Assembly: GCA_046757165.1 (NCBI GenBank) | Contig: JBHHXT010000003.1 | Location: 36,144-100,143 of the forward strand | From: a bacterium | Lineage (GTDB): Bacteria > Zhuqueibacterota > Zhuqueibacteria > Oceanimicrobiales > Oceanimicrobiaceae | Reading direction: 5' to 3' | Length of the DNA stretch: 64,000 nt | Part shown: piece after piece, positions 1 through 19,174 of the stretch | How the letters are laid out: the number at the start of each line of letters is the position of its first letter | Numbering within the stretch: position 1 is the first letter of the stretch | Translations under genes and position numbers: made by a program | The notes under the pieces: generated by a model | What the model saw: the letters and a program-made list of their open reading frames with translations, nothing else | What the model was told of the DNA's origin: nothing | The model's database searches: none

Positions 1-286
1 GGTCGATGCCGGTCGGGGAGAGATCGATGACGGGAAAGCCATATAACTTGGATATTTCAACATAGATGAGATGCCGGTCGACCTTCAACTCGTCGATCAG
101 GATGTCGAGGAGCTTGCGTTTGGCATTTCGGGGTTCACGACTCTGGATATCCGCCGCCTTTTGCAGCATCTCTTCGTTGACGACGCCCCGGGCGACCAGC
201 GCCTGTGACAAACGCCCGAGACTTTTGGTTCCCGGCCTGAGATTGATCTCTGCTGTAATCGTGGTTTTTTCTGCTTTTCTAACCAT
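1..286 (-). CDS. pilB: N-terminus of a PilB/GspE-type pilus assembly ATPase (MshEN-like domain), truncated by the window edge
   Basis: Manual translation from ATG at 286: MVRKAEKTTITAEINLRPGTKSLGRLSQALVARGVVNEEMLQKAADIQSREPRNAKRKLLDILIDELKVDRHLIYVEISKLYGFPVIDL. This resembles the PilB/GspE N-terminal domain and follows pilC directly. The ATPase motifs lie outside the window. Confidence 0.7.
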   Translation of the reverse strand, partial: MVRKAEKTTITAEINLRPGTKSLGRLSQALVARGVVNEEMLQKAADIQSREPRNAKRKLLDILIDELKVDRHLIYVEISKLYGFPVIDLSPTGID

Positions 287-299
287 AGTTCACTTCAGT

Positions 300-1643
300 T
301 CACTTCGATAGCGGTGATGGAGGACTCACAAATCCGATTTCAGATGACACCAGGGTCAAGCCGACCACCAGTAAGGTGATAAATATCGAAACCATGACAT
401 TGATCATGTCGACCAGCTTGCTCATTTTATGTTTGGTTTCTGTTTCATAATAGTTTGCCAGTTGCAGCGCCGTCTCCCGCAGGGTTCCGGATTCCTCCCC
501 GGACCGCAGTCGTCGGACGGCGGTCATCGTAAAGCAGTTGGCGCGGATGAGACATTCAACGAAGCTCTTGCCCTCTCTCAACATGCTCGGGATGACGTGC
601 CCGGTGATTTGCTTTTCAATGTATTTGTTCCGGCATGATTCTGCCGCAATACGAATGGCGGTGATGTTCTCGCCCGAGCTGCTGTAGAGCGAGTAAAAGA
701 CGCGCGCAAAAATCTCGATGCTCGTCTTGTGCAGGATCGAACCTACAACGGGTACGCGTATCACAGTCCGGTCGAAAGTATATCTGCCTTTTTCCGTTCT
801 GAGCCAATTGAAAAATAGCACGAGTGGGGTGATGAACAAGATGAAAAGTATGCCGTAGTAGTCCTGCAAAAAGTGGCTCAAGTCCATGGTTGCACGCGTC
901 ATCGGCGGGATATCAATGCTATACTTGGTCAGAATGTCTGTCATTTTGGGAAAAATGTACATGACATAGAACACCACGGCCGCGAGCATTCCCAGAGTGA
1001 CAAACATGGGCATAAACAGGATGGTGCGCAGATTACTTCGAAATTCTTCATCCCGCTCCAGGAACCTTGCCGTGCTTTCGTAGATCGCTGCCATATTCCC
1101 GCTGGTGGAGGCCACGGCCATCATGTGTGCTGCAAACTTGCCGAACACGTCGACGTGTTTGCTGTAGACCATGTGACCTTCATTGCCGGCTTTCAGGTCC
1201 TTCTGGACATCGCGAATGGTCTCACGCAGCCGCCTGTTTTCGGTGTCATCGCCGACGAGCGTTAAAATCTCATCGTAAGGAAATTTCTCCCGCAACAGGT
1301 CCGAGCAGATTCGAATGAACAAGATCAAATCCTTGGTCGGGACCTTGAGTTTGAAGTTGAACACTTTCTTGCGGACGTAGAAAACCCGGTAGCCCATCTT
1401 GATCAGGGCATTCTGCAGCTCCTCTTTTGAAAACGCTTTTTGTTCACCAAAAAGCGGCTTCTCCCGTCCGCGCTGAACTTTGTAAGCAAAGAGCGTTTTC
1501 TTTTCAATGGCATCAATGCGAACGCCTTTGCTTTTGACCAGCCTTTTGACTTTTTCTTTGACCGTCTTGTCGTCCGGACTGAAGACGACGCCTTGAATCG
1601 GTTTTCCTGTGACGTTGACGCCGGTGTATCGGTATTCGGGCAT
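300..1643 (-). CDS. pilC: Type IV pilus/T2SS inner-membrane platform protein (PilC/GspF family)
   Basis: MPEYRYTGVNVTGKPIQG start, two GspF-like repeats (…ASTSGNM…, …SGEESGTL…), three hydrophobic segments, and an apparently duplicated N-terminal beta motif. Confidence 0.9.
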   Translation of the reverse strand: MPEYRYTGVNVTGKPIQGVVFSPDDKTVKEKVKRLVKSKGVRIDAIEKKTLFAYKVQRGREKPLFGEQKAFSKEELQNALIKMGYRVFYVRKKVFNFKLKVPTKDLILFIRICSDLLREKFPYDEILTLVGDDTENRRLRETIRDVQKDLKAGNEGHMVYSKHVDVFGKFAAHMMAVASTSGNMAAIYESTARFLERDEEFRSNLRTILFMPMFVTLGMLAAVVFYVMYIFPKMTDILTKYSIDIPPMTRATMDLSHFLQDYYGILFILFITPLVLFFNWLRTEKGRYTFDRTVIRVPVVGSILHKTSIEIFARVFYSLYSSSGENITAIRIAAESCRNKYIEKQITGHVIPSMLREGKSFVECLIRANCFTMTAVRRLRSGEESGTLRETALQLANYYETETKHKMSKLVDMINVMVSIFITLLVVGLTLVSSEIGFVSPPSPLSK

Positions 1644-1680
1644 GAAAATCGCTCTGATTATGAATTCAATTTACACAAGT

Positions 1681-1705
1681 TGGGGTTGGACTGCGTCCAA
1701 CCCCA
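1681..1705 (-). terminator. Perfect 11-bp stem-loop between the pilin-like gene and pilC (partial terminator or mRNA-stabilising hairpin)
   Basis: TGGGGTTGGAC-TGC-GTCCAACCCCA, with only a weak U-tract. Confidence 0.55.
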
Positions 1706-1720
1706 GCCTGCCATGGTCGC

Positions 1721-2134
1721 TTATCTGTTGGTAATCGCGGTGGTGACCCCGTCTCGCGTTACGGTCGCGTCGATGGTGACGTTGACTGCATCTCCGTCCT
1801 GGTCTTCGACGCCCACAAAACGAAAAACCACTTGCGTCGCCGTGCCGGCCGTTTGGATTGAATAGGTGCCATCCTCGGTGGTGGCGGGCCAGGTCAATTG
1901 CGCGGTCATGTCAGTGCCCGTTGCCAGGGCCACAAATGAGTTGCCGCCGCCGCCCGCCAGCACGGGTTTGCGGTACCAGTCACGTGCTCTTTCAGAAAGC
2001 GTCAGGATGCCTTGCATGCCGGCGTCCTGGTTGGCCCGGCCGGCGCTGGTGGTGACCATGTTGATGCCAACCGCGATTGAAATCCCAACAATGATGGTGC
2101 TGAGAACGATGAGTAAAAGTTGCTGTTGTCCCAT
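1721..2134 (-). CDS. Pilin-like protein with a minimal MG leader (MGQQQLLLIVL family)
   Basis: N-terminal hydrophobic helix directly after MGQQQ, small globular C-terminus, strong RBS (TAAGGAG), located upstream of pilC/pilB. Confidence 0.7.
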   Translation of the reverse strand: MGQQQLLLIVLSTIIVGISIAVGINMVTTSAGRANQDAGMQGILTLSERARDWYRKPVLAGGGGNSFVALATGTDMTAQLTWPATTEDGTYSIQTAGTATQVVFRFVGVEDQDGDAVNVTIDATVTRDGVTTAITNR

Positions 2135-2266
2135 GAGATGTTACTCCTTAATTTGACGTTACTCCAATTTGTTGGCGAATTGTATGAGATTCCCCCGGGT
2201 TGTTCGGCTGTCACCTCCTTTCCGGCCCGCGGGTGCCGGTGCTGGTTCGCTGTTTCATGGTAGTTG

Positions 2267-4747
2267 TCAGTATGAATCGCGCGCCTGCGCGATCTGAAAA
2301 TTGAAATTCGAAAACAAGATTCGTTCAAAATTTTTCTTCAAAAGGTTGACCACTTGCTCCGCTGTTTGAAAACGGTTATCCGGTTGCTTTTCCAGACATT
2401 TCAGCACCAGGGCATCACAGAATCTCGGCACCTGGCTGTTGAGTGTCGACGGCGGCGGCGGGACGATGTTCAGGATGGCCTCGGCCAGACTCGGATAATT
2501 GCCCCCCATAAACGGGTGCTTGAGCGTCAACACCTGGTACATGATGACGCCCAGCGAAAAAATATCGCTGCGATTATCACCGCGTTGTCCGTGCAGTTGC
2601 TCCGGTGACAAATACAGGCGCTCGCTCTCGTCCTGTAAATTGTCATACTCATCAAAAAGCGTCCCAGGAATGAGAAAGTCCATCAGCTTGGGCTCCTCGT
2701 TACCTCCAAGCATGATGTTGTTTGGCTTCAGGTTCAAATGAAAGAATCCCAACCGGTGGCTATAAACCAGGCCCTTGAACACCTGGTAGATGGCTTTGAT
2801 GAAGCGCTCGCCATTGAAATTGCCATTCTTGAACATGGCCGTGAAGGGCACCCCCTCGACGAATTCACGCGCGATATAAGTCAGATCCTGGTCTTCGTCC
2901 ACTTCGTAAATGGTGACAATATTCGGGTGGTTGAGCTGCCCGAGCGCTGATGCAATCTGATAAAACTCCCGTTTCTGCGGGTTGTTGACCGGCAGCGAAT
3001 TGAAGACTTCCGACTGGATGACTTTCAAGATGACAAATCGCTGTAAGTTGGTATCCTTTGCTTTGTACACTTTGATCGCGCCCTTACCCCCCAGTTCCGC
3101 CAGCAGCTCGAACCGACCCAATTTTTTGATGTACCCGAATTTGAGCTCATCAATTGGATTGCGCCAGGCCACTTCAAACAGGCTCAGATTCTCCTGCAAG
3201 TATTTCAATTTGAACTGCCCGATGGCATTGACCTTGAACCGGTTGGAGCTCTTGATCTCACGGTAGGCTTTGGCGCTCAGAAAAATGCGGTCGGTTTTCT
3301 GGAACACTTTGCCGTACATGGGCTTGTCCTGTACCGAGAGATCGGGTTCACTAACGATTCCGATTTTCAGCCCCGTACTCAGGTCGCGCAGCGTCTGTTC
3401 ACTGTTGTGAAGCAACCCCTCGCGCGCATGATGAACCCCGATGGCGAGATGGACTTGCTCTTGCGGTTCGTTGACAAAATTGTAGCGATTCAAGATGTTG
3501 AGCAGGTCCACACAGAGAGATACCCCCTGAATGATGTCGTTGGTGAAAATCAGCAGTCCGTTGGCGGTTGCCCACACGTGATTGACCTGGTACTTCTCGA
3601 GACAATCGGTGAGCACCGCGAAGAACTTTTTGCGTATTTGATTGACTTGCTCCATGCCAAAATCTTCACATATCTGGTCAAAATTGCTCAGCTCGATGGT
3701 GACCAGAATTTCTGTGTCCGCCGCAATGTCTAAATGCTCGCTGGCCTCTTCCTCGCTGGAGAAGATGGCCGCGCCCTCTTTCTGAAAGTCGTCGTAGGTC
3801 AGCGTAGAGCGCGATGCACCGGCCCGTCTGCTCATGGTCTCAAACGGGCTGAGCCGGTTGAGGACTTCGCCGCTGAGATTGAAAGGTGGCGCGCCACCAC
3901 GAGCTTGTCCCCCCTGCTCCTGAGTCTCTTCCAGGGAGTGGTAAGCGTAGATACTCTCGGTTTCAACGGTTTCAGCGCTTTCAAAGCTGCCCCAGTACTC
4001 CTTCTCGAACAGGAACCGCTTCAGCTCCAGATAAAAGCTGAGATCTTGCAGGGTGTCGAATTTCTTTGTTTGGTGCAAGTATTCCATCACCAGGTGGCGG
4101 TCGATGAAGCTAAACCGCTGCGGTTGATTCCGGGTCTCGCCATTGAACTTCTTTTCCAAGTAGGTCATACAAAGCTGTCCCGTCAGCACATAAGGGTTTT
4201 CCGTTGTGTCGATGAGCTTCTTGAGCAAGTTGATCGTCTCGTGGAACTGCGCCGTTTGCCACGAGCACCGCAGATGCAAGTCCACGGCTTGCGGGACATA
4301 GCCGGACTTGTTGAGAAGCCTGGCCGTCACGTGTCGGCATTTGTCATATTGCTGCTGGCGGAAATAAGCCATAGAGAGATGGTGCGCGATTTTGTCAAAC
4401 TGCGCGCTCTCGCTCCGGAGCGCCATTTCATACACCTGCAGGGCGCCCGCATCATCTCGCCCTTCCTTCAGGAATGATCTTGCCAGCACCTCATAGATTT
4501 CTGCGTTGTTCGGCTCATACTGGATCGCCTTCTGGTAGATAGCAAGCGCTTTTTCGTCGAACTTTTTCAGGCCGATGAGCGCTTTGCTGAGCTGCGTGTA
4601 GATGTGCTTGTTTGCCACCCTGAACTGCAGCAATTGATTATAGCGCTTGACGGCCTCGCCGTACAACCCCTTCTCCAGATAGGCATCGCCCAGCGCCATG
4701 ATCATGATCAGCAAATCCTTGTTGTTTCTTGCGTCAATCGTCGGCAT
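2267..4747 (-). CDS. Multidomain protein: TPR repeats, degenerate class III nucleotide-cyclase-like domain, Ser/Thr pseudokinase
   Basis: TPR-like helices at the N-terminus. Cyclase-like central region (VTIELSNFD…ATANGLL…LAIGVH…IFLS…GQFKLK). Kinase fold with LGGKGA, VILK, HLNLKPNN, DFL, YLSPEQ and DIFSLG. Confidence 0.8.
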   Translation of the reverse strand: MPTIDARNNKDLLIMIMALGDAYLEKGLYGEAVKRYNQLLQFRVANKHIYTQLSKALIGLKKFDEKALAIYQKAIQYEPNNAEIYEVLARSFLKEGRDDAGALQVYEMALRSESAQFDKIAHHLSMAYFRQQQYDKCRHVTARLLNKSGYVPQAVDLHLRCSWQTAQFHETINLLKKLIDTTENPYVLTGQLCMTYLEKKFNGETRNQPQRFSFIDRHLVMEYLHQTKKFDTLQDLSFYLELKRFLFEKEYWGSFESAETVETESIYAYHSLEETQEQGGQARGGAPPFNLSGEVLNRLSPFETMSRRAGASRSTLTYDDFQKEGAAIFSSEEEASEHLDIAADTEILVTIELSNFDQICEDFGMEQVNQIRKKFFAVLTDCLEKYQVNHVWATANGLLIFTNDIIQGVSLCVDLLNILNRYNFVNEPQEQVHLAIGVHHAREGLLHNSEQTLRDLSTGLKIGIVSEPDLSVQDKPMYGKVFQKTDRIFLSAKAYREIKSSNRFKVNAIGQFKLKYLQENLSLFEVAWRNPIDELKFGYIKKLGRFELLAELGGKGAIKVYKAKDTNLQRFVILKVIQSEVFNSLPVNNPQKREFYQIASALGQLNHPNIVTIYEVDEDQDLTYIAREFVEGVPFTAMFKNGNFNGERFIKAIYQVFKGLVYSHRLGFFHLNLKPNNIMLGGNEEPKLMDFLIPGTLFDEYDNLQDESERLYLSPEQLHGQRGDNRSDIFSLGVIMYQVLTLKHPFMGGNYPSLAEAILNIVPPPPSTLNSQVPRFCDALVLKCLEKQPDNRFQTAEQVVNLLKKNFERILFSNFNFQIAQARDSY

Positions 4748-4763
4748 TGCAAAATTCGGCTCG

Positions 4764-5174
4764 TTAAAGAGCGAAGCTCTTCATTCGTTTTAACTCCTTG
4801 TCTACCGCCCGTTCGATAAGCTTGATCGCCTCCGCATCCTTTCTGCCCTCGATGATGTAGTGCTTGGCGACCAGCGTGTACAGCTCGTCCCGCCACTCAA
4901 ATGGGATCTTGAATCGCAGGATAAGCTCGAATACTTTCATGGCGCGCCTGTCGCGACGATTCTCGAGATAATAGATTCTTGCCAACTTTCGGTACACCTG
5001 CAACTTCTCCGGGCTCTGCTGCACCAGAGATTCCAGTATTCGGCCTGCTTTGCGGTCATTGCCTCGCCAGAGCCAGATACTCGCCCGCAATTCCGGCGAA
5101 AGCCAGATAATGCCGAAAATCAGGCTCGAGACCAGCAAAACAATGGGCAAAACGAACAGCTCCATCTTCGTCAT
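4764..5174 (-). CDS. Small membrane-anchored TPR-like protein
   Basis: N-terminal TM segment followed by helical TPR-like repeats; co-oriented within the cluster. Confidence 0.6.
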   Translation of the reverse strand: MTKMELFVLPIVLLVSSLIFGIIWLSPELRASIWLWRGNDRKAGRILESLVQQSPEKLQVYRKLARIYYLENRRDRRAMKVFELILRFKIPFEWRDELYTLVAKHYIIEGRKDAEAIKLIERAVDKELKRMKSFAL

Positions 5175-5249
5175 TCCGTTTCCACCGAAGAGTTTTCAGT
5201 GGCGTTTATTATTCTCCCCTCCAGCGCAGGTCCAACCACCAGGCAGCCC

Positions 5250-6608
5250 CTATTGTAGAACAGGTAGCTGCACTCCCGACACTTTGCGAATCACATTGTT
5301 GGAGGAATCAATTAAGAAAATCGAAAAGTCCCCGCTGATGAGTGGCGTGTCATCCAGGCGATAGGGATGAATTCTGTCAATTACGGTCCCTCTTTCATCG
5401 AGCTGTGCTGTTTGATAGTCTTTCAGGCTATTGAAAAACACCACAGCCAGAACGGCATCATCGCTCAGTGTGGAGCGAGTAATTGGCTGCGTCTGCGAAG
5501 CGATGAGGCTGCTCGAGTTTGCAGCGTTCGCCGGCAGCGCAACTTTCGTCTGGCGCGACCCGCCGGAGCGTGAAGCGGCCATCCGTGCTTTGGGATTGAA
5601 GTTTTGTAACGCCATGCCCAGCATAAAACAGAGCAACCCGGTGAGCAAAACCAGGCCGGGAACCATAAACCTACGTCGATGAATAGTCGTCATGAGCGAA
5701 TGCTGATTGGTTTGAAGTTGTGGTTCACTGTAGTTGTCATGGATGAATCTGTCTATTTTCTGACTTAGTTTATTCTCTTCTTCCGCAATGGTGGTCGAGA
5801 GTCCCTGCCGCCTGGTGTCCTTGCTATCCTGGCTGACGCGGGCGATGGCAACAGTAATGTTGTCCGAGCCGTCTCGCCGCATCGCTTTCTGTATCAGCTT
5901 GCGCGTGAGGGCGTCGAGCGAGCCGTGGTTGCGCTCGAAGAGTCTCTTGATATCCCTGGGGCCTACCGAATTGTGCAGACCATCGGTGCACAGAATATAG
6001 GTGTCGTCTTTCTTGTACTTCTCACAATGGATATCTATTTTCACCGTGGGCCCCGTGCCCAAGGCGCGCGTGATGACATTTTTTTGTGCAAATGTTTCGA
6101 TCTGCTCTTCATTGATTTCCTTGTCTTCGATCAGCTCGTTGAGCCAGGAGTGGTCTTCGGTGAGTTGAAAGACCTCCTGGTCGCTGACGCGGAAGATTCT
6201 GCTGTCCCCGACGTGCACCATGGTCGCAAATGACTTATCGAGCGAGAGTGCGACCACCGTTGTGCCCATGCCACGCAACTTGCTGAACTGAGTCGAGATA
6301 TTGTAGATTCTCCGGTTGGCCAGGCGTACCGCTGCGATGAGCCGGCAGGACGAACGCGCCAGAGTGAGCTCCTGCTCGTACAAGAAGTGCTTGACCAGCT
6401 CATCATCCATATGCTGGTAAATGTCCTGAATGGTCTCGACCGCGATCTTGCTGGCCAGACCGCCGGCAACTTGTCCCCCCATGCCGTCACAAACGATCAC
6501 CAGGTTTTCGTCCTTCGAGATGTAATAGCTGTCCTCGTTGGCTTTCCGGACTTTGCCGACGTCGCTGTAGACCGCTGTTGTGGTTGTGATCCGTTTTTCT
6601 TTCAGCAT
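5250..6608 (-). CDS. PP2C-family Ser/Thr phosphatase (Stp1/PrpC-like) with a TM segment and extracytoplasmic tail
   Basis: Intact motifs RKANED, CDGMGG, HVGDSR, TRALG, LCTDGL and DNIT; TM segment VPGLVLLTGLLCFMLGMAL. Confidence 0.9.
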   Translation of the reverse strand: MLKEKRITTTTAVYSDVGKVRKANEDSYYISKDENLVIVCDGMGGQVAGGLASKIAVETIQDIYQHMDDELVKHFLYEQELTLARSSCRLIAAVRLANRRIYNISTQFSKLRGMGTTVVALSLDKSFATMVHVGDSRIFRVSDQEVFQLTEDHSWLNELIEDKEINEEQIETFAQKNVITRALGTGPTVKIDIHCEKYKKDDTYILCTDGLHNSVGPRDIKRLFERNHGSLDALTRKLIQKAMRRDGSDNITVAIARVSQDSKDTRRQGLSTTIAEEENKLSQKIDRFIHDNYSEPQLQTNQHSLMTTIHRRRFMVPGLVLLTGLLCFMLGMALQNFNPKARMAASRSGGSRQTKVALPANAANSSSLIASQTQPITRSTLSDDAVLAVVFFNSLKDYQTAQLDERGTVIDRIHPYRLDDTPLISGDFSIFLIDSSNNVIRKVSGVQLPVLQ

Positions 6609-6624
6609 GGTTTATCAGCGCAGC

Positions 6625-9387
6625 TCAATAATAGCTCAGCTTGCTTCTGGTTCGCCTGACACCGAACTGCAACCCCACCACCAACAAAATGGCGACCAAA
6701 GCCGAAGCCATGTAAGCGAAATAAATGCCACTGTTTCGTTTCAGGGCTGAGGCAGCGTTCGTGTGTTTGCTGTTGCCAAACGCCTGTCCCCAGACCACCC
6801 GTTCGGGCGTGCGACTGTTGCTGTTGAGTTTATAGAAGCGCCCATCTTCTCTCAATACCAAAATATCGAGGGTGTGGTCATTATCAAGGTCACCGATCAG
6901 AGGCTGGCTAACCAGTTTTGACTCACCTGCCGGATGGGTGATCAGCGTTCTTCCGGTGGCGCCGTCGAGAATATAGAGCGTGCCACGTTGGCCGGTGACC
7001 AGGACATCCAGCGTGCCGTTTTTGTCGAAATCGGCCAGAATGGGCTGGCCGATGAAGAGGTCGTTGGATGGGGTCCGGAATTCCCACCAGACCATTTTCC
7101 TATCCCGGCCTGCACCCGTACCCTCGAGAGCAATCAGCCTGCCCGCGGAAGTCTGGCTCACGACGTCCGCCAGGTTGTCGCCGTCCAGATCTCCCAGCAC
7201 GATCCCCTGCGATCCGGCCCCGGCTTCAGTTGCCAGACTATCGTTGAGCGAATACCACATTCTGTGCAGACTGGCGCCGTCGAGCGCCAGAATATTTCCC
7301 TGTTCAGAATGGATGGCCAGGTCTGGGAGAGTATCTCCATCGAGATCCGCCACGGCAACCGGGCCTCGAACTTGGTTGTTCTGGTCAAAACTGCCAATGG
7401 CTTTGTTGAGTTCTTCGTTCACATTCAGTTCTTTCGTGATTTTTTGCTCGACTGCGTCGATCAGGAGCACTTTGCCGGTTTCGGTGCCGATCAGCAGGGT
7501 CGTTAACCCGTCCCCTGTTCTATCGGCGACGCTGATGATCGAAAGAACCGGCACCTGCAAATCCATCTTGACCCAGCGCAGGGTTCCCAGATTGGAAAGC
7601 CCGATGTAGACCGCGTTCTCGACCGAGGCGACCGCCACATCTTTCAGACCGTCACCGTTGAAATCGGCGACGACCGGAGGCCCGGTAAGGGGGCCTGCCA
7701 GGATTGGGCTTTTCCAGATTTCCAGCCCCCATTTGCCGTCGATGGCGTGCACGCGGTCGTCGGTTGATATGACGACGAGATCTGGCAGTCCTTTGCCATA
7801 CAAGTCTTCGACCACGACCGGGAACTCCTGAATGGCTTTGAAATCATAGTTTGTCCACAACGGGTCCTTGGACCGCCCGTTGATGCAGTTCAGAAGCCCC
7901 TTGTTGTTGACGTAGATCAAGTCCACAGTTTCATCGCCGTTGACATCCGCAATGGCTGGATGAATGGCAAAACTGACCCTCTCCCGGGGCTCGAATTTTG
8001 AATCGATGTCGCTCGCACCCCACACGGCCTCAGAGAGTTGCAATTCACTCGGCCGACTGGTAATCAAACGTCTGTTTGCAAACGATTCTCCAAAGACAAC
8101 AAGCGCCAGCAAGATCAGCAGAGCCGAGACCGCGTTGAACAACGGCAGTCTGTAGCGTACCGTCCATCCCCCCGCCTTGCGCGGGAAGGAGTAGTCCCAG
8201 TCCCCCTCTTCAACCATCCTGAGAATATGACTTTTGCCGTCGCTCTTGATTTCAATTTCATCTCCCGCGCGGATTTGCACCTCGTGGTTGATCTCGAGCA
8301 TGCGCTGGTTGAGCCAGGTTCGACTTTTGCTCCGCTTGTCCGAAAGATACCAGCGGTTATTCTTGAATCTTAGCGTCGCATGTCGTCTCGAGATCGATTG
8401 GTCGAACTTGCCCCTGGAATTCTTTTTGAGGACGATATCGTTGAGTTTTCTGTCGCGACCAATTCGGGTTTCGGGTTCCTTTATTTTGAATTTCCGGCCC
8501 AAATAGTAGCCGTAAATGCCCAGAAGATACGCGGCCTGCGTTTCTAGTGGGCTGCCGGTCACCGCTTCCTCGGGCTTTTCGGTATCGGTGTAGAGGTCGA
8601 CGGTAATGCCGCTGTTTGTGCCTTCGGGTTCCAGCGTTTCAGGGACGAGGTCACCGCCGATCAGAAAGTCCTCCGCGGCAGCGTCTGCCAGGCTCGTGCC
8701 GCCGTCCGGGTATCCGGGGCCGGGCTGTTCTTTCAAGTCGAGTACACCGTCTGGGTGGCCATACCCGTTAGCGCCTTTTTGGCCGGAGGTATGGCTTGCC
8801 GGATACTGTTCAGCATGTGACGTCGCCGGATGGTCGCTCATCCCGGGTTGGCCAGACCGGCTGGTCGTTGCCCCATTCTCCGTGTGCCATGACGATAGCT
8901 TGAGCTGAGTCGCCGGCGGTTCACGGTTGGTTGCCAGCCAGTCGTTGAGCTGGACCAGGGATGGCACGCCGACCATTCGCTCAGCGATATTGGGGCGTGG
9001 TCCCTGGGGACTGCTCGTGCTCCTCACCGGGCGCGCAGGCTGAGCGGCCGGTGTAACACCAACAACCGGCAGTTCGATACCAGGGCCTGTCTCCGAGCCC
9101 AAAAAGACGATGGTATGTTTTCCTAACTTGACTTCGTCGTAATCGTGAAGGGGTGTTCGCTGCGAGATTTTGTGGCCATTGACAAATGTACCCCACTGGC
9201 TCTGCAGATCCCGCACATAGTATTGTCCGTTTTGTTGTTCAAACTGAAGATGGAAAAAAGATATAACTTCATCATTGATGATTATGTCGTTTCCTCTCTC
9301 ACATCCGACAGTGAATGCCTCCATCTCGTCGGGAACTGCCAGTTTTTTTACCACCTGGCTCCCCTTTTTTATCACCAATTTCGGCAT
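6625..9387 (-). CDS. Two FHA domains, TM, FG-GAP/PQQ-like beta-propeller and C-terminal TM
   Basis: FHA1 (ISFFH…GTFVNG) and FHA2 (IGRD…ISRRH); repeated ADxNGDG/DLDGD FG-GAP motifs; two hydrophobic segments. Confidence 0.85.
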   Translation of the reverse strand: MPKLVIKKGSQVVKKLAVPDEMEAFTVGCERGNDIIINDEVISFFHLQFEQQNGQYYVRDLQSQWGTFVNGHKISQRTPLHDYDEVKLGKHTIVFLGSETGPGIELPVVGVTPAAQPARPVRSTSSPQGPRPNIAERMVGVPSLVQLNDWLATNREPPATQLKLSSWHTENGATTSRSGQPGMSDHPATSHAEQYPASHTSGQKGANGYGHPDGVLDLKEQPGPGYPDGGTSLADAAAEDFLIGGDLVPETLEPEGTNSGITVDLYTDTEKPEEAVTGSPLETQAAYLLGIYGYYLGRKFKIKEPETRIGRDRKLNDIVLKKNSRGKFDQSISRRHATLRFKNNRWYLSDKRSKSRTWLNQRMLEINHEVQIRAGDEIEIKSDGKSHILRMVEEGDWDYSFPRKAGGWTVRYRLPLFNAVSALLILLALVVFGESFANRRLITSRPSELQLSEAVWGASDIDSKFEPRERVSFAIHPAIADVNGDETVDLIYVNNKGLLNCINGRSKDPLWTNYDFKAIQEFPVVVEDLYGKGLPDLVVISTDDRVHAIDGKWGLEIWKSPILAGPLTGPPVVADFNGDGLKDVAVASVENAVYIGLSNLGTLRWVKMDLQVPVLSIISVADRTGDGLTTLLIGTETGKVLLIDAVEQKITKELNVNEELNKAIGSFDQNNQVRGPVAVADLDGDTLPDLAIHSEQGNILALDGASLHRMWYSLNDSLATEAGAGSQGIVLGDLDGDNLADVVSQTSAGRLIALEGTGAGRDRKMVWWEFRTPSNDLFIGQPILADFDKNGTLDVLVTGQRGTLYILDGATGRTLITHPAGESKLVSQPLIGDLDNDHTLDILVLREDGRFYKLNSNSRTPERVVWGQAFGNSKHTNAASALKRNSGIYFAYMASALVAILLVVGLQFGVRRTRSKLSYY

Positions 9388-9398
9388 TTACTTAAAGC

Positions 9399-11975
9399 TT
9401 AGTTTGAAGGAAAGATTTCAAAAACTAAGTTCGTTGTATCGCCAGCCCGCGCGATAACCGTCCGGCTCAGTTCGTTGTACCCCGCTTTCTTGACTTTGAG
9501 CACGTAGTTGCCCGCTGGCAGCCTGCCAATTCCTTCCCCGTTGACATCGGTTTGGTCGAGGAACGTCTCCTTTGAGCGTATCGGTTCTGTGGCGGTATAG
9601 TAGATGTCCGCCCCCGGGATGGGCACTTCGGTCAAGGCATCCCGTACCGATATTTCAACCATCGTCTTCAGTGGGGGCATCTCGACAACCACAGAGTGGG
9701 CCGCTCCTCCAACCCTGATTTGCTTTCGTTCATACCCCGGCTTCGAGAAAATCGCAGTCAGGGAATAGGCCGGCAGAACGATCTTGAAGGGTGTTTGTTT
9801 GCCTCCCCTGCCCAGGTCCCGGTTGTTATGTCTAATGCTGATGAGCGTCGCACCGATATCCCCTCGTTCGCGGGTACTGCTATCGCGAGCCGAGAATCGA
9901 ACGCTGCGTGAAAGCACGACATTGACGCGCTCACTTGAAGCCTCATCCACCACCACCGTGAGTGTTTTGCTGATAAAGTTGTCCTTTCGCATTTCCAATT
10001 TGTGACGGCCCATTGGAAGCAAGAGCCCGTCACGATTTCCGGCCATGCCAATCATCTGGCCTGTCTTGCGGTCAACGATCTCTACCCCGGATGGCACCGA
10101 TTCGATGAACACCCGTTTCCTGAAAATTCCGGTGATAGCATACTTCCTGTAAGTATCATTATATACGATCAACTCCCACAATCTGCGGTCATCGACTTCA
10201 TCGAGTCCTGAAATTGTGTCGAGAGAATATTCGGCGAGTTTTTCGAACCCTGAACGCTCCAGTTCGATGGCGAGCGGGTGGCCAACTTCCCAGGTAATGG
10301 CGCACGGCGTGCGCTGGTTCAGGCGAATGCCGTTGATATAGACCTGAGCGCCCGGCGGTTCGGAAGCAATTTCAACCTCGGTGGTAAACCGGAACAAATA
10401 GGTTTGATTCCTATCCCCTTCGGCTTCGCCCTGGACGCGAATGTCGCCCTCTCTCGGCACGAACAGGGATTTGACAATGGGTTTGTAGCCGGCCAGACTG
10501 AGTTCCAGTTTATGCACCCCCGGAGCGATCTCATCGATAGCAAGCGGTGTCGTGCCCGCTACTTTCTTGTCGTCGAGAAAGAGCGTGGCATTCTCGGGCA
10601 CGGTGGTGATTTCGATCGCGGGCGGAAAAACAACGTCATAGAGCCAGAGTCCAGCCCGGGTCCAGTGGTTCATGGTATCGAGAGCAAGGAACCCGGCAAC
10701 GGCAATCATTAGGCCGATACAGGCTTGCACAATCCGTTTTTTGTTGTTTCTCGCTGAGATTCGCAGGACATCGATGACGGTCTTCAAATCCTCTTCGCCC
10801 TCGCCCTCGAATTCCATGGTTGAAAAATCTGTTGGAAATTGTTGCTGTGCCGGCCGCGTTCTATCCGGATACGATGGGCTCGCGTGCTTTGGCTGCAGGC
10901 GAGCCTCTGGCGGCAGCACAGGGGTTGGGTTGGCCATCTGCCAGTTGACCGAAGAGGCCAGGCCCGGGTCCTGTGACGTAAGCGGGCTGGATTCGAGCTT
11001 TTCTGGTGTGGTCGTGCTATAGTTTGGCGGAGTGATCGGAGGCGTCTGCACGGTAAACTGGTCGGCGAGATGTGCCGCCAGGTCGTCCATGAGCTCACCC
11101 GTCTCGTTGCTGGCGATCAGGTACTGCAGCAAATCGATGTACATGTGGTTGGCGCTCTGGTAGCGCTTCGACAGGTCGATTTCCAGGGCCCGCAACAAAA
11201 TCTTGACCAGGGCGTGGGGAAGTCTCTTTCCTTTCAGGGCCTTTTTGAACCACTTCGGATTCTTGCCCGCTGCGATCACCTCCTCCTGCGAGGTAAACAA
11301 CCGTTCGCCGGTAATGGCTTCGAACAGCACCAGGCCCAGGGAAAACAAATCCGAGCGGTGGTCGGGGTGATTGCCCATGATGAGCTGTTCCGGTGCCATG
11401 TAAGGAATTTTGCCGCGCAGCTTGCTGTCCTTTTTGGCCTTGTGATGGCGCCGCACCGACGCAATGCCAAAGTCGATGAGTTTGACCGCGCCATAGCGGG
11501 AAATCATGATGTTGGACGGAGAGATATCCTGATGCACCAGGTTTAGCGGCTTGTTGGTGAAGGCATCACGTCGTTGATGCGCATATTCGAGCGCCATGCA
11601 GATTTCCGACACGATGTAGATCCCGAGGTGCGCCGGCATTTTCTGGTTGTATTTTCTGGCGTGACGGTTGATTTTTTCCAAATCGATACCGTCGATATAC
11701 TCCATGATGATATAGAGATGTCTGTCGGTGGTCTTTTTGAGCTCGTAGATGTGAACGATGTTGTTGTGGCTCAGCTTGGCGATGTTGAGCGCCTCTTCCT
11801 GGAACATGTCGAGGTACTTCGGATCATCTAACAGGTTTGGCGCGATCTCCTTGATGGCGACGGGTTTGTTGAGCTTTCTGTCCATTCCGTAGTAAACAAT
11901 TCCGAAGCCACCTTTCTTAATCTCGCGAACGATCTCGTATTTCTCATCTAACATCCGATTGCCATGAAGCGTCAT
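9399..11975 (-). CDS. Transmembrane Hanks-type Ser/Thr protein kinase with PEGA repeats and a C-terminal beta-sandwich domain
   Basis: KGGFGIVY, VAIK, HQDISPSN, DFG, YMAPEQ and DLFSLG; TM segment; PEGA-like segments (TVPENATLF…GTTPL, SEPPGAQVYING). Confidence 0.92.
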   Translation of the reverse strand: MTLHGNRMLDEKYEIVREIKKGGFGIVYYGMDRKLNKPVAIKEIAPNLLDDPKYLDMFQEEALNIAKLSHNNIVHIYELKKTTDRHLYIIMEYIDGIDLEKINRHARKYNQKMPAHLGIYIVSEICMALEYAHQRRDAFTNKPLNLVHQDISPSNIMISRYGAVKLIDFGIASVRRHHKAKKDSKLRGKIPYMAPEQLIMGNHPDHRSDLFSLGLVLFEAITGERLFTSQEEVIAAGKNPKWFKKALKGKRLPHALVKILLRALEIDLSKRYQSANHMYIDLLQYLIASNETGELMDDLAAHLADQFTVQTPPITPPNYSTTTPEKLESSPLTSQDPGLASSVNWQMANPTPVLPPEARLQPKHASPSYPDRTRPAQQQFPTDFSTMEFEGEGEEDLKTVIDVLRISARNNKKRIVQACIGLMIAVAGFLALDTMNHWTRAGLWLYDVVFPPAIEITTVPENATLFLDDKKVAGTTPLAIDEIAPGVHKLELSLAGYKPIVKSLFVPREGDIRVQGEAEGDRNQTYLFRFTTEVEIASEPPGAQVYINGIRLNQRTPCAITWEVGHPLAIELERSGFEKLAEYSLDTISGLDEVDDRRLWELIVYNDTYRKYAITGIFRKRVFIESVPSGVEIVDRKTGQMIGMAGNRDGLLLPMGRHKLEMRKDNFISKTLTVVVDEASSERVNVVLSRSVRFSARDSSTRERGDIGATLISIRHNNRDLGRGGKQTPFKIVLPAYSLTAIFSKPGYERKQIRVGGAAHSVVVEMPPLKTMVEISVRDALTEVPIPGADIYYTATEPIRSKETFLDQTDVNGEGIGRLPAGNYVLKVKKAGYNELSRTVIARAGDTTNLVFEIFPSN

Positions 11976-12066
11976 CCTAGCCGTCGACCTTTTGGAGAGT
12001 TTTCCTGATTAATAGACAGAAGGAAAGAAAATCCATTGTAAAAACCGCTTGATTTGTGTGACCATT

Positions 12067-12082
12067 AGCAATTAGTATGCCA
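12067..12082 (-). promoter_or_regulatory. Sigma54 (-24/-12) promoter upstream of the kinase-pilus operon
   Basis: Minus strand reads TGGCATACTAATTGCT, giving GG-N10-GC with TGGCA and TTGC consensus, about 90 nt upstream of the kinase ATG. Confidence 0.75.
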
Positions 12083-12291
12083 CTCGAATGTTATGTGCTC
12101 AAATCGCGATATGTTGCGGCATTTCAACCGGTTGCTTTCACCGGGCTCCTGGAGATCAGGCAGGGAATGCCTGTGTCCTTTTGATTCAGGTGTACGATTA
12201 CTGGACAGCACTCTGGACAGGAATGAGGTCAAAATTTACCTAAATAATAAATTTATTTAAGATTAGTAATGCTGCCGGTGCGCTTTTTTTC

Positions 12292-12320
12292 TTGCATTTC
12301 AAGGGCTTTTGTCCTATCTT
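12292..12320 (+). promoter_or_regulatory. Putative sigma70 promoter for the rsbU/W/V-mla operon
   Basis: TTGCAT-N17-TATCTT upstream of the ATG at 12366. Confidence 0.5.
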
Positions 12321-12365
12321 TTAATAAACTTTCAACCTGGGCACCCTTTTTCAACGCAACAACCT

Positions 12366-13697
12366 ATGCTTGAAGATAAGCAAGACGTCACGCTGGCCGC
12401 ACGCGACCCGCTCAACGATCCACAAGATGAACTTGCTTATTTGCGCTCCAAAGTCGCCGATCTATCCAGCCTGATCGAAGTCAGCATCATTATCAACACG
12501 ACCCTGGAGTTGGAACGCTTAATGGCTCTGGTCATGGAGAAAGCCCAGAGCGTGATGAAAGCTGAAGCAAGCTCTGTCATGTTGATCAATGAGCAGAGTC
12601 ATGTGCTGGAATGCGAAGTGGCGCTCGGCAAAGTCGGAGACAAAGTCAAGAAGATTCAGCTTCAGATGGGTGAGGGCATTGCGGGCTGGGTAGCACAACA
12701 CGGCGAAGCACTCATCATTCCCGACGTCTCAGTTGATTCCCGGTTCTCTGCCAAAGCCGACGACTCGACGGGCTTTCATACGAAATCTATCCTGGCCGCC
12801 CCATTGGTGGTGAAAGACAAGATTATCGGTGTGGCCGAGGTGGTCAACCGTATCGATGGGCTGGCATTCAATCAGGAAGATCTGGAGCTGTTTTCCACAT
12901 TTTGCCGGCAGGTCGCCATGGCGATCGAAAACGCGCGCATGCACAAGCTGGAGCTCGAGAAGCAGAAGCTGGAGCAGGAGCTCGAGTCGGCAAGAATCAT
13001 TCAGCAAAGCTTCATGCCACAGGCATTTCCGTCGCCCGAGCGCGAGTTTTCGATTTCAGCCAAGAGTCTTCCGGCGGCTTCCGTCGGGGGTGATTTTTTT
13101 GATTTTTATGAATTTGACAACGGTTCTATCGGCATCGCCGTTGGCGACGTGACGGGCAAGGGCATCCCGGCCGCTCTTTATATGGCGAGGCTGGTCAGCG
13201 ATTTGCGTTTGTTTACGCAAAAGTACAGGAACCCGGCCAGGGTGGTGCACGAGCTCAACGAGCTGCTTGCTGACCGCAGTCGGCGGGGAATGTTTGTTAC
13301 TTTTCAATATGGCATTTTCGACCCGGAACAGCGGAGATTTACGTTTGCCAATGCTGGCCATCTCCCTTTTGTTAGAATTCATTCATCGCAAGACAGAGTT
13401 GAAGTCTTGACCGGCGGGAAAGGCATTCCCCTCGGGATCATGTCAGACATGAATATCGAGGAAGCGTCTGTCGTGCTAGAAAAGGGCGACTGCATCGTAT
13501 CGATAACAGACGGCATCATTGAAGCCAAAAATAGTTCAGGCGAGGCCTACTCACTGCGGCGCACTTTGGAGGTGCTGGCGAAACCTCAGACGCGCGCTGC
13601 CGCTGTAGTCGACTGTCTCCTACAAGATGTGCAGGCTTTCACTGCGGACACCGCGCAGCATGATGACTTAACCATCTTAGCCTTGAAATGGAACTGA
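12366..13697 (+). CDS. GAF plus SpoIIE/PP2C phosphatase (RsbU-like)
   Basis: GAF domain (GEGIAGWV…KSILAAPL) and SpoIIE motifs VGGDFFD, GDVTGKG, NAGH, TDGIIE, DDLT. Start moved to ATG 12366. Confidence 0.92.
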   Translation: MLEDKQDVTLAARDPLNDPQDELAYLRSKVADLSSLIEVSIIINTTLELERLMALVMEKAQSVMKAEASSVMLINEQSHVLECEVALGKVGDKVKKIQLQMGEGIAGWVAQHGEALIIPDVSVDSRFSAKADDSTGFHTKSILAAPLVVKDKIIGVAEVVNRIDGLAFNQEDLELFSTFCRQVAMAIENARMHKLELEKQKLEQELESARIIQQSFMPQAFPSPEREFSISAKSLPAASVGGDFFDFYEFDNGSIGIAVGDVTGKGIPAALYMARLVSDLRLFTQKYRNPARVVHELNELLADRSRRGMFVTFQYGIFDPEQRRFTFANAGHLPFVRIHSSQDRVEVLTGGKGIPLGIMSDMNIEEASVVLEKGDCIVSITDGIIEAKNSSGEAYSLRRTLEVLAKPQTRAAAVVDCLLQDVQAFTADTAQHDDLTILALKWN

Positions 13698-13756
13698 AAT
13701 CCGGCATCCTTTCGCGCAGTCCCAATCCAATATCATCGATTTAGGAGTGAGCATTC

Positions 13757-14514: not shown

Positions 14515-14520
14515 TCGGGC

Positions 14521-15324: not shown

Positions 15325-15325
15325 T

Positions 15326-16114: not shown

Positions 16115-16223
16115 GCACAAAAAGATCCTTTCAGGACGACAGAAAAATAGCATGAATAACCTTAATCCGACAAGCTCGAGGCCAACAGCAACAGCCAACA
16201 GCTAACCACGGAGATCTTTGATT

Positions 16224-17126: not shown

Positions 17127-17149
17127 TCATCAAAGCTCAGGGGCGTTTA

Positions 17150-17798: not shown

Positions 17799-17824
17799 AG
17801 TTGGCAAACCACATAGGGGAAACG

Positions 17825-19174
17825 ATGGGGAGCTTATCTTCATTAGAGATCTTGGTTGTTGAAGATAATGACGGGGTCCGCAATGCCATCTTCTATCTGC
17901 TTCGAAAATCCGGATTTGCGGTCGAGGCAGTGGATAACGGCCTGGCAGCGCTAGCGAGACTGCAGCAGCAGTATTTTGATCTGGTGATTTCCGACTACAA
18001 GATGAAAAAGATGGATGGCATTCAATTGCTGGGGGAGATCAAGAAGAATTGGCCTGCGACGGAGGTGATTATCATCACGGCCTTTGGCACCATTTCGCGC
18101 GGTGTGGAGGCGATAAAGCTGGGGGCGTTTGATTACATCACCAAACCGTTTGACAATCAGGAATTGCTCAGGATTGTGAAGCGGTTCGTGGAGAAGCGCG
18201 AGGCCGGGACGCAGGCGCGGGAACGGACACAAAAACTGCGGCAGTTGGCTGAGTTTGACGCAATTGTGGGGACCTCGCACAAAATGGTTGAGTTGTTGGA
18301 AGTGGTGGTGCGCATCGCCAGCAGAGACAGCACGATCCTCATCACTGGCGAGAGCGGGACGGGCAAAGAGCTGGTCGCCAAATCTATCCATGCGTTGAGT
18401 CCCCGTAAGCATAAGCCGTTTGTTGCAATCAACTGCGGCGCCATACCGGAGAACTTGCAGGAGAGTGAGCTCTTTGGCCATAAGAAGGGGGCGTTCACGA
18501 GCGCCGACAAAGACAAACAAGGCTTGTTTGAAGTGGCCGATGGTGGCACGGTGTTCCTCGACGAAGTTGCTGAAATGGCCGCCTCCACCCAGGTCAAGCT
18601 GCTCCGCTTCTTGCAGGACGGTGAGGTGCGGAGGATTGGCGACAGCTTTCCACGAAAGGTGTGTGTGCGCGTGATCGTCGCGACCAACAAAAACCTGGAA
18701 AGTGAGGTCAAGGCCGGAACGTTCAGAGCAGATTTGTATTACAGAATCAATGTGATTCCGGTGCATGTGCCGCCTCTGCGGGAGCGCAGGGAAGACATCC
18801 CGTTGCTGGTGAACCACTTCGTTCAAAAATACAACGATACCAACAATACTCTGGTCAAGTCCGTTTCAAAGAGGGCTTGTTCCATGCTGATGAATTACGA
18901 TTGGCCCGGAAATGTGCGCGAACTGGAGAACGTGATTCATCGCTGTGTGGCGCTGGCGGCAAGTGAGGAGATTACCCCTGAGCTTCTCCCGGATGAAATC
19001 CGGAAGAGGGCGGCCGAAATAGCCCCCGACACTAGCGCTGGCAAGAAAAACCTGGCAGACATTGAGCATGAAGTCATCCTTGCGACGTTGAAACGCATGA
19101 AGGGCAACAAACAAAAAACCGCCAAAGAGCTCGGAATTTCCAAAACGACTTTGTGGAGAAAACTAAAAGTCTGA
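17825..19174 (+). CDS. Sigma54-dependent response regulator (NtrC/AtoC family; REC-AAA+-Fis HTH)
   Basis: REC domain (VVED, ISDYKM, KPF), [29 protein letters not shown] and a C-terminal HTH. Confidence 0.95.
   Translation: MGSLSSLEILVVEDNDGVRNAIFYLLRKSGFAVEAVDNGLAALARLQQQYFDLVISDYKMKKMDGIQLLGEIKKNWPATEVIIITAFGTISRGVEAIKLGAFDYITKPFDNQELLRIVKRFVEKREAGTQARERTQKLRQLAEFDAIVGTSHKMVELLEVVVRIASRDSTILITGESGTGKELVAKSIHALSPRKHKPFVAINCGAIPENLQESELFGHKKGAFTSADKDKQGLFEVADGGTVFLDEVAEMAASTQVKLLRFLQDGEVRRIGDSFPRKVCVRVIVATNKNLESEVKAGTFRADLYYRINVIPVHVPPLRERREDIPLLVNHFVQKYNDTNNTLVKSVSKRACSMLMNYDWPGNVRELENVIHRCVALAASEEITPELLPDEIRKRAAEIAPDTSAGKKNLADIEHEVILATLKRMKGNKQKTAKELGISKTTLWRKLKV

Follow-up and report, generated by a model that had tools for sequence, protein, structure and literature searches.

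This work concerns a type IV pilus gene cluster that is enclosed by genes for Ser/Thr phospho-signalling. It was found in a KSB1 (Zhuqueibacterota) genome, referred to here as G000, starting from a 64,000-nucleotide stretch of contig C3 (G000:C3:36144-100143) that we call the window. The window holds the upstream third of a block of co-oriented genes that is ~31 kb long and that, when the contig is read leftwards, runs from a signalling cassette (cassette A) through ten pilus genes and a paralogous cassette (cassette B) to exopolysaccharide genes. In our opinion the best single reading of this arrangement is that the pilus is gated by a phosphothreonine switch made up of Ser/Thr kinases, FHA-domain proteins and a PP2C phosphatase. 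We put this forward tentatively, at a little short of an even chance; conserved linkage, specialised paralogues and a threonine-rich tail on PilB make it plausible. Switches of the kinase/FHA/PP2C type are already known. The results suggest that what is new is the placement of one around a type IV pilus, in an uncultured KSB1 family.

The preliminary description of this DNA listed eight co-oriented genes. The minus-strand open reading frames (ORFs) of the window (A1 to A5 and P1 to P3 in Table 1) match that list exactly, as do the gaps calculated from their coordinates: 11 nt between A1 and A2, 16 between A2 and A3, 75 between A3 and A4, 16 between A4 and A5, 132 between A5 and the pilin gene P1, 77 between P1 and the PilC gene P2, and 13 between the PilC and PilB (P3) genes. 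Eight genes is too few for the block as a whole: P3 itself runs past the window edge, and the same strand adds at least 11 genes beyond the left edge of the window. The pilus machine is encoded in the order leaderless pilin, PilC, PilB, a PilT-like ATPase, an apparent PilM-PilN-SPOR fusion, a 304-amino-acid membrane protein, a short secretin and three minor-pilin-like proteins. Cassette B then contributes a PEGA kinase (B1), an FHA/propeller protein (B2), a 612-amino-acid TPR protein (B3) and a TPR/pseudokinase protein (B4), and has no PP2C gene; B1 and B2 overlap by 4 nt, as do B3 and B4. This close packing, with short gaps in cassette A and overlaps in cassette B, is suggestive of a pilus switch.

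The arrangement is conserved in the home family. A match to A2 was found in all 20 relatives considered in addition to G000, and we mapped the cluster proteins with tblastn onto fetched contigs. At least part of a cassette adjoins the pilus genes in each of the 15 family genomes that can be examined for linkage (14 genera), and the cluster proteins compared across the family are 34-83% identical. The full order of cassette A, pilus genes and cassette B is found on one contig in seven genomes (G000, G004, G012, G017, G011, G008 and G006), with a contig end inside the block in G012 (after B2) and a contig that begins inside PilC in G006. In G009, G018 and G001 the two cassettes are on two contigs, with the break inside the block; in G010 cassette A is followed by pilus genes up to the contig end, and in G016 the pilus genes are followed by cassette B. 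In G003 cassette A and the pilus genes are followed directly by export genes with no cassette B, in G014 by B4 only, and in G002 A3 to A5 and the pilus genes share one contig, with a second run of cassette genes on another. Matches in G005, G007, G013, G015, G019 and G020 are on short contigs and are outside this count. The synteny search proposed in the preliminary description therefore has a divided outcome, the signalling and pilus genes being linked in the home family (15/15) and unlinked in the other KSB1 families described below. We count the conserved linkage within the family in favour of a pilus switch, which it suggests.

The anatomy of the cassette proteins is that expected of a signalling set. 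Domains were assigned with Pfam, curated cut-offs were taken from NCBIfam, membrane segments come from a hydropathy scan and structural matches were obtained with Foldseek on predicted models. The domain contents first given for the eight genes are borne out by Pfam, models and motifs. A1 is a Hanks kinase, predicted to be cytoplasmic (Pkinase, E = 1e-38), with one membrane segment and with PEGA and CarboxypepD_reg domains that would be periplasmic. A1 and its paralogue B1 retain the VAIK lysine, the helix-C glutamate, the catalytic aspartate and asparagine, the DFG and the APE. Their catalytic loop is HQD[IV]SPSN (HQDISPSN in A1), which is of the non-RD kind and has a serine in place of the usual lysine. 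No PEGA-kinase paralogue picked up departs from this odd loop, an argument for an enzyme that works and is under constraint, and we take A1 and B1 to be probable working kinases. A looser form of the loop, H[QK]D[IV]SPxN, is common to all PEGA-kinase paralogues and families picked up in the fetched loci, and is an unusual but conserved signature.

A2 consists of an FHA domain (FHA1), a long Ser/Thr/Pro-rich linker, a second FHA domain (FHA2), a membrane segment (residues 414-432), an FG-GAP beta-propeller predicted to be periplasmic and a second membrane segment (888-906). The FHA match has an E-value of 5e-33 in Pfam and, as read from the sequences, FHA2 of both A2 and B2 retains the GR and SRRH motifs. 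The phosphatase A3 retains the PP2C motifs and passes the NCBIfam cut-off for Stp1/IreP (232.7 against 230 bits); its C-terminal part of ~118 amino acids is predicted to be periplasmic. A4 is a small protein whose orthologues in the home family are 46-68% identical. From the membrane topology, the kinase, FHA and PP2C domains would be cytoplasmic, with PEGA, propeller and PP2C tail outside.

A5 had been called a TPR-pseudocyclase-pseudokinase protein, and both of the "pseudo" assignments hold up. Its catalytic loop reads HLN, and that of B4 HRN, in place of HRD, with DFL and DGG further on; asparagine replaces the catalytic aspartate in 13 of 13 orthologous loops picked up, which marks A5 and B4 as pseudokinases. 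The cyclase-like region (residues 330-530) is barely visible to sequence methods, with a Pfam Guanylate_cyc match at E = 0.14 and a profile match to a solved adenylyl cyclase at E = 0.05. However, a model built from nine sequences, with a predicted local distance difference test score (pLDDT) of 80, matches the class III adenylyl cyclases Ma1120 and Rv1900c (Foldseek E = 1e-7 to 1e-6, probability 1.00). The GDG of the Ma1120 metal site aligns with ANG and, in our own reading, the first aspartate position is a glutamate. Going by the predicted model, this is a cyclase-fold domain that lacks the two metal-binding aspartates, and the name pseudocyclase suits it. Taken together, the anatomy of these proteins and the apparent catalytic state of the kinases, the phosphatase and the pseudokinases suggest a switch of the proposed kind.

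The FHA/propeller proteins next to the pilus genes also appear to be distinct from their relatives. A tree was made of 42 such proteins (IQ-TREE quick search, LG+G4, with support from the Shimodaira-Hasegawa-like approximate likelihood ratio test (SH-aLRT) only), leaving out one redundant ORF call on contig C12; its rows were labelled from gene context, not from the tree. All 13 A-type rows form one clade (SH-aLRT 99) and all 12 B-type rows another (SH-aLRT 100), with G002 basal in both. Ten of the 11 stand-alone copies from the family group elsewhere, with G027 and G022, and the copy on contig C315 falls close to the A and B clades, together with G030 and G040. We read A and B as specialised paralogues that are older than the diversification of the family and that have probably been with the pilus genes since; the root of this tree is set by a non-monophyletic outgroup, so the order of events is not settled.

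A possible target for such readers is found at the N-terminus of PilB. A threonine-rich tail lies ahead of a conserved GRLSQAL stretch in each of the 12 full family orthologues, in the form [ST]IT[AES]EI in nine, TITFTKSL in two and TATTVLP in one (G002), and is found in none of the eight PilB proteins from other families. The spacing in the tail is Thr-x-x-Ile/Leu, and many FHA domains prefer Ile or Leu at the +3 position after the threonine. That the tail tracks the presence of the cassette is, in our view, a lead that favours a pilus switch. Another input may act on the same protein. Residues 25-48 of PilB (RLSQALVARGVVNEEMLQKAADIQ) resemble the 24-residue binding motif for cyclic di-GMP (c-di-GMP) of MshEN domains, Pfam has an MshEN match at residues 116-177, and c-di-GMP may thus be a second input to this PilB.

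A mechanism can be proposed for how such a switch might work. The periplasmic PEGA and propeller domains would sense an envelope or surface cue. The kinases would autophosphorylate and also phosphorylate the Ser/Thr-rich linker of A2-type proteins or the threonine tail of PilB; the canonical FHA2 domains would read these phosphothreonines and recruit or release the PilB/PilM platform, turning pilus extension on. The PP2C phosphatase would reset the switch, and the catalytically dead pseudokinase/cyclase proteins could serve as scaffolds. Such a system would carry the logic of the type VI threonine phosphorylation pathway over to a type IV filament. The switch would have originated once, at the base of the KSB1 family, by the joining of two older and otherwise independent modules.

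A sigma-54 promoter of the -24/-12 type had been placed ahead of cassette A, and the element TGGCATACTAATTGCT is present there. Motifs of this kind with at most one mismatch number four in the window against 2.74 expected, which is not above chance, and the promoter call therefore rests on conservation. In an alignment of the intergenic region the core TGGCA..A...ATTGC is invariant in six of six genera, at a mean column identity of 49%, and in each of six family genomes (32-60 kb examined) this site is the only match of at least 10/11 on the cluster strand. Further upstream a block TGTCC...CG.ACA..TG, a candidate activator site, is conserved in the six-genus alignment, and in G004 it is a perfect TGTCCG-N5-CGGACA. 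The genome has rpoN (contig C1). One conserved sigma-54 promoter at the head of the block, as predicted here, is a further suggestion of a pilus switch.

The same promoter can be used to argue for transcriptional control, in which the kinases would act through a sigma-54 activator or another regulator on the expression of the pilus genes, as in the Sulfolobus archaellum. The NtrC-type protein encoded nearby (Table 1) is the candidate activator of the cassette A promoter, in another KSB1 family (f10) a PEGA kinase gene is directly beside that of a GAF-type sigma-54 activator upstream of the pilin genes, and there is an archaeal precedent in the excerpted text of PMC5007285. However, the nearby activator has a receiver domain and no FHA domain, membrane-anchored FHA/propeller proteins are unlikely as transcription factors, and the cassette lies downstream of the promoter that it would control. 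We consider this the least probable of the readings discussed here, and quite improbable in itself.

The pilin gene may have a transcript of its own. The leader element that precedes it (Table 1) is ~60-100 nt from the pilin start and is not followed by a start codon. Within it AAGGAGGTGA is a perfect Shine-Dalgarno-like string, and strings resembling AAGG(A/G)GGTGA...GGGGA are also found upstream of pilin genes in other KSB1 families. A search of Rfam gave no match at E <= 0.1 in window positions 1-12400, and the whole 132-nt gap between A5 and the pilin gene folds no better than shuffled sequences (z = -0.38). The 76-nt stretch with the hairpin behind the pilin gene has a minimum free energy of -27.7 kcal/mol (z = -3.83), and none of 200 shuffles was as stable. 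The gap between A5 and the pilin gene is ~145-355 nt in relatives. The leader element and the hairpin look like stabilisers, at the 5' and 3' ends respectively, of a pilin mRNA that is either made separately or processed. In other families the DNA ahead of the pilin genes gave one plausible sigma-54 site (G037), a near-match (G107) and nothing consistent. An insertion of the cassette between the pilin gene and an ancestral promoter of that gene is therefore unsupported.

The two modules were also compared outside the home family. Ten pilus loci were taken from other KSB1 families (G124, G117, G093, G098, G107, G066, G037, G035, G109 and G061); eight of these run from the pilin genes to the secretin, and those of G117 and G098 are cut by a contig end. 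A sigma-54 activator gene is beside the pilin genes in seven of the ten, and in three (G124, G037 and G109, all of family f10) a Ser/Thr kinase gene is next to the activator gene. Family f10 has, in this respect, a second and differently built association of kinase and pilus, and we count this too in favour of a pilus switch. Six cassette loci were taken from other families (G027, G032, G037, G040, G030 and G022), in which kinase, FHA/propeller, PP2C, TPR and pseudokinase genes stand in a row. As a side observation, the G124 locus (L059, 7333-10210, plus strand) encodes a GAF-type activator and a 456-amino-acid protein with a canonical (HRD) Pkinase domain and PEGA, directly upstream of the pilins; G037 and G109 are arranged likewise.

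Several findings weigh against a switch dedicated to the pilus. The FHA/PP2C cassette occurs in none of the ten pilus loci of other families, and pilus genes occur in none of the six cassette loci within the 20-30 kb fetched. The preliminary description had counted a lack of linkage in relatives against its own proposal, and outside the home family the modules do stand apart. Further, G000 itself has a stand-alone cassette on contig C12 and a partial one on C315, and a stand-alone cassette is also present in at least nine family members. This indicates that the cassette does something apart from the pilus, and co-regulation may be all that adjacency means. Family genomes can do without cassette B, which G003 lacks and of which G014 has just the pseudokinase gene. 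FHA1 lacks the phosphate-binding arginine of GR. The correlation between PilB tail and cassette amounts to one evolutionary event and so is not independent evidence. Finally, the leader element ahead of the pilin gene, the hairpin after it and the wide gaps in relatives mean that a single operon can be claimed at most for cassette A, and that co-transcription of the pilin gene from the cassette A promoter is doubtful.

The main competitor is, then, that the genes are co-regulated and nothing more. Cassettes, pilus genes and exopolysaccharide genes would together make up an island for the cell surface or for biofilms under sigma-54 control, and the signalling proteins would act on other targets, such as envelope or polysaccharide synthesis, and never on the pilus. 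In favour of this reading, cassettes without pilus genes occur in other families, and G000 has a third copy of this kind. The reading also fits with the position of the stand-alone cassette of G032, which is 5-15 kb from Wzz- and Wza-like genes, with cassette B abutting the Wza/Wzz/ATPase locus in G000 and G004, and with the pilus genes directly abutting the export locus in G003. It fits less well with the A and B paralogues, each of which is monophyletic and found only beside pilus genes, with cassette A lying between promoter and pilin in the family genomes that can be examined, and with the co-occurrence of PilB tail and cassette. We consider co-regulation on its own unlikely, and still a serious contender.

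The machine that is proposed to be under phosphothreonine control is recognisable as a type IV pilus of the type IVa/type II kind, with the PilB/PilT/PilC trio present. The gene called PilB from its first codons, whose truncated ORF in the window matches nothing in Pfam, could be followed past the window start, and the full protein matches T2SSE at E = 7e-103. The best NCBIfam models are all below their equivalog cut-offs: PilB has 430 bits (cut-off 675), GspF/PilC likewise falls short, and the 410-amino-acid PilT-family ATPase has 315.7 bits (cut-off 319.1). P5, of 686 amino acids, is PilM-like over its first 400 residues (matches in the ESM Atlas at TM-scores of 0.6-0.8), which are followed by a probable PilN segment (Pfam E = 7e-5; PDB 3jc8 at E = 0.007) and a SPOR domain. 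The secretin is short (411 amino acids, E = 8e-28). The adjacent DNA had been suggested as the place to look for PilM, PilN, PilO and PilQ or GspD; a PilM-like part and a probable PilN segment, fused in one protein, and a short secretin were found there, and no clear PilO or PilP was recognised in the pilus cluster by Pfam and profile scans. A profile search against solved structures gave no match for the 304-amino-acid membrane protein, P6, and the minor-pilin-like proteins P8, P9 and P10 match no Pfam or NCBIfam family.

Another reading is a structural role, in which the FHA/propeller and PEGA proteins would be envelope-spanning parts of the pilus, such as an alignment or peptidoglycan-anchoring subcomplex, with phosphorylation secondary. 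FHA-bearing ring or platform proteins are known from type III secretion (YscD) and from the Myxococcus gliding machine (GltG). The FHA domains of the block also match Yop-YscD_cpl (E = 1e-22) and, weakly, GltG (E = 2.4e-4), the proteins have large periplasmic domains and two membrane segments, and it is PilO and PilP, among the expected parts, that are not clearly recognised in the cluster. However, the same pilus machine is complete without these proteins in all ten of the other-family loci, and an active-looking kinase and PP2C are kept alongside. A structural role is, in our estimate, distinctly improbable.

The major-pilin candidate P1 is unusual. It had been described as pilin-like, and its model (pLDDT 89) does have a pilin fold, with an N-terminal helix at residues 2-55 and a four-stranded sheet. 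The top four Foldseek matches are PAK pilin entries, with probabilities of 0.91-0.99 and E-values of only 0.036-0.14; the best is full-length PAK pilin (probability 0.99, TM-score 0.60, E only 0.036). P1 matches no N-methyl, pilin or other family in Pfam or NCBIfam. The hydrophobic helix comes directly after the start, MGQQQLLL, and P1 cannot start earlier because the listed start is the first start codon after a stop. A Shine-Dalgarno-like AAGGAG is found ahead of the pilin ATG in most orthologues. An alignment of 20 orthologues and paralogues shows no change at M1, Q4 or Q5, with G2 and Q3 in at least 90% and with L6 and L8 nearly invariant. The family is also represented in metagenomes, where at least 2387 of the 8000 candidates scored reach E <= 0.001; of ten such relatives fetched, nine begin with MGQQQLLL and one with MGSQQLLL.

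Type IVa pilins have a class III leader that is cleaved by a prepilin peptidase, and P1, judged by its sequence, has no such leader. P1-type pilins could function in the form in which they are translated, or could lose Met1 to methionine aminopeptidase, or be cleaved behind Gly2. The pilus cluster contains no gene for a peptidase of family A24 (prepilin peptidase), and two are found elsewhere in the genome. Glutamate at position 5 is a hallmark of mature type IV pilins. In P8 the start MG-x-[RQ]-E, with glutamate at position 5 as counted from Met1, is found in 13 of 15 ORFs, and the remaining two have a GERE string further in and are apparently over-long calls. In the window genome P8 begins MGHRE (Glu at position 5 from Met1) and P10 begins MGRALLII. 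A literature search on leaderless type IV pilins returned nothing relevant, which is a weak negative. The leaderless MGQQQLLL family may challenge the rule that type IV pilins need a prepilin peptidase.

A more specific version of the switch can be formulated, in which two dedicated paralogues of the module gate the pilus post-translationally through phosphothreonine docking on a newly acquired PilB tail, with pilins that are leaderless and maybe peptidase-free. This version is rather doubtful as a whole. If true, it would be the first bacterial type IV pilus under a switch like the type VI threonine phosphorylation pathway.

One of the closest known systems is that of Pseudomonas aeruginosa, whose H1 type VI secretion system has a threonine phosphorylation pathway made up of PpkA, PppA and Fha1. 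Both there and in the block described here, the gene cluster of an envelope-spanning machine also encodes a membrane-bound Hanks kinase that has its sensor in the periplasm, along with an FHA protein and a PP2C phosphatase, and in both cases the gating is presumed to be post-translational. However, the present block encodes a type IV filament; Pfam showed no type VI family among the cluster ORFs scanned, and a match to TIGR03354 (TagH) is far below its cut-off (45.3 against 120.25 bits). Furthermore, both the FHA protein and the phosphatase of the block are anchored in the membrane, the former with a beta-propeller on the periplasmic side. The sensor domains of its kinases are of the PEGA type and not of the von Willebrand A (vWA) type, and the set is duplicated and includes TPR/cyclase-fold/pseudokinase proteins. 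The type VI pathway is also referred to in the excerpted text of PMC8460266.

Type IV filaments under related control have been described elsewhere. According to the excerpted text of PMC5007285, the archaellum of Sulfolobus acidocaldarius is under the Ser/Thr kinases ArnC and ArnD, the FHA protein ArnA, ArnB and the phosphatase PP2A. Common to both is a type IV filament that is controlled through Ser/Thr kinases together with a phosphatase and an FHA reader. The archaellum network differs, to go by the same excerpts, in being archaeal, in acting mainly on the expression of filament genes, in having parts that are soluble or otherwise built (zinc finger-FHA, vWA) and in having genes that are not so interleaved with those of the machine. 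The Kil cluster of Myxococcus xanthus is Tad-like and rich in FHA domains, and in the excerpted text of PMC8460266 its authors proposed a type VI-like signalling cascade. From those excerpts it shares with our block a type IV filament cluster, several FHA-domain proteins and a short secretin, and it differs in being of the Tad class, with a CpaF-type ATPase that has a fused FHA domain and with a Flp pilin. The words kinase and phosphatase are absent from the main text of that paper (PMC8460266), whereas the present block has PilB, PilT and PilC of the type IVa/type II kind and an explicit kinase/PP2C pair.

In type IVa systems that are regulated at PilB, control by c-di-GMP/MshEN and by PilZ-FimX is reviewed in PMC11656802, as far as its excerpted text goes. 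These are alike in that the extension ATPase is the control point through its N-terminal region, where an MshEN-type match is found here as well; they differ in that the input proposed here is phosphothreonine and FHA, and in that the pilins here have no leader. The terms "threonine" and "FHA" do not occur in the excerpted text of this 2024 review of PilB regulators (PMC11656802). In the passages of the KSB1 genome papers PMC11683472 and PMC9012183, "pili", "pilus" and "FHA" do not occur and no protein kinase is mentioned. We found no printed description of a kinase-FHA-pilus arrangement for KSB1. The original statement that such control is not described for type IV filaments in this lineage stands in so far as it concerns KSB1, and needs to be qualified by the Sulfolobus archaellum and Kil, as they are presented in those excerpts. 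By analogy, and to the extent of the excerpted papers, the archaellum and Kil precedents suggest that the logic of such a switch can be applied to a type IV filament.

Bacteria depend on type IV pili for attachment, motility, DNA uptake and biofilm formation, and the known switches of pili are c-di-GMP, cyclic AMP, PilZ/FimX and two-component systems. If a phosphothreonine switch does act here, a Hanks-kinase/FHA/PP2C switch in a bacterial pilus cluster would be a new class of control. It would then appear that a "phospho-Thr gate" has evolved repeatedly, in type VI secretion, the archaellum, perhaps Kil, and this pilus. The family-specific merger of modules that are separate elsewhere in the phylum provides a natural comparison between pili with the cassette and pili without it.

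Table 1. Features of the block and its surroundings. Positions refer to the window unless a locus is named.
Feature	Position	Strand	Basis and remarks
A1, receptor Ser/Thr kinase	9399..11975	-	Pkinase, 3 PEGA, CarboxypepD_reg (Pfam); membrane segment 415-433
A2, FHA/propeller protein	6625..9387	-	2 FHA and FG-GAP repeats (Pfam); two membrane segments
A3, membrane-anchored PP2C phosphatase	5250..6608	-	Pfam PP2C_2; membrane segment 316-334
A4, small membrane-anchored TPR-like protein	4764..5174	-	Weak TPR matches below cut-offs; N-terminal membrane segment 6-24
A5, soluble TPR / cyclase-fold (inactive-looking) / pseudokinase protein	2267..4747	-	Pfam TPR and Pkinase; predicted model; motifs
P1, major-pilin candidate without leader peptide (MGQQQLLL...)	1721..2134	-	137 amino acids; predicted pilin fold
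P2, PilC/GspF platform protein	300..1643	-	T2SSF E = 3e-32 (Pfam)
P3, PilB, first 95 codons	2..286	-	Full protein 610 amino acids, remainder beyond window start
PilB codons 8-14 (TTITAEI), Thr-rich N-terminal tail, candidate phospho-Thr docking site	245..265	-	Conservation; putative function
P8, minor-pilin-like, 160 amino acids	L002 11837-12319	-	N-terminal hydrophobic segment
P9, minor-pilin-like, 196 amino acids	L002 11235-11825	-	N-terminal hydrophobic segment
P10, minor-pilin-like, 399 amino acids	L002 10017-11216	-	N-terminal hydrophobic segment
Sigma-54 type -24/-12 promoter TGGCATACTAATTGCT	12067..12082	-	One mismatch to TGGCAC-N5-TTGCW; ~90 nt upstream of A1 ATG
Candidate upstream activator site, TGTCC..N..(G)GACA-like inverted repeat	12187..12207	-	~105-125 nt upstream of -24 element; putative function
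NtrC-type sigma-54 activator (REC-AAA-HTH)	17801..19174	+	5.8 kb away; syntenic in G003 and G002
Conserved pilin-leader element: GC-rich hairpin, then AAGGAGGTGA, then CCGGGGGA	2191..2239	-	Invariant GGAGGTG in 6-genus alignment
Hairpin after pilin stop	1682..1704	-	10-bp G+C-rich core in 11-pair predicted helix, no T run

Some features of the surrounding DNA may be of use to others. Directly after cassette B there is a polysaccharide export locus (G000 contig C3, 1-16651, L003), with genes for Wza-like, Wzz-like and tyrosine-autokinase-like proteins, an ExeA-like ATPase, a priming transferase, a flippase and a glycosyltransferase. Its best NCBIfam matches are to XrtA/PEP-CTERM-associated families, all below cut-offs. 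The PEP-CTERM regulator PrsR was considered for the NtrC-type activator; the match has 378 bits against an NCBIfam cut-off of 502.6, and the idea that the block is a PrsR regulon was therefore dropped.

A second PilB/PilC/secretin cluster, with a peptidase A24 gene, is located on contig C71 of G000 (~400-11300), and is likely to be an ordinary system for type II secretion or type IV pili. Finally, a divergent block on the plus strand of the window (12309-17773) begins with a partner-switching set, consisting of a GAF-SpoIIE phosphatase, an anti-sigma-type HATPase_c_2 kinase and a STAS protein, and continues with genes for MlaE/MlaF/MlaD-like proteins and an auxiliary lipoprotein; its position is kept in family relatives.

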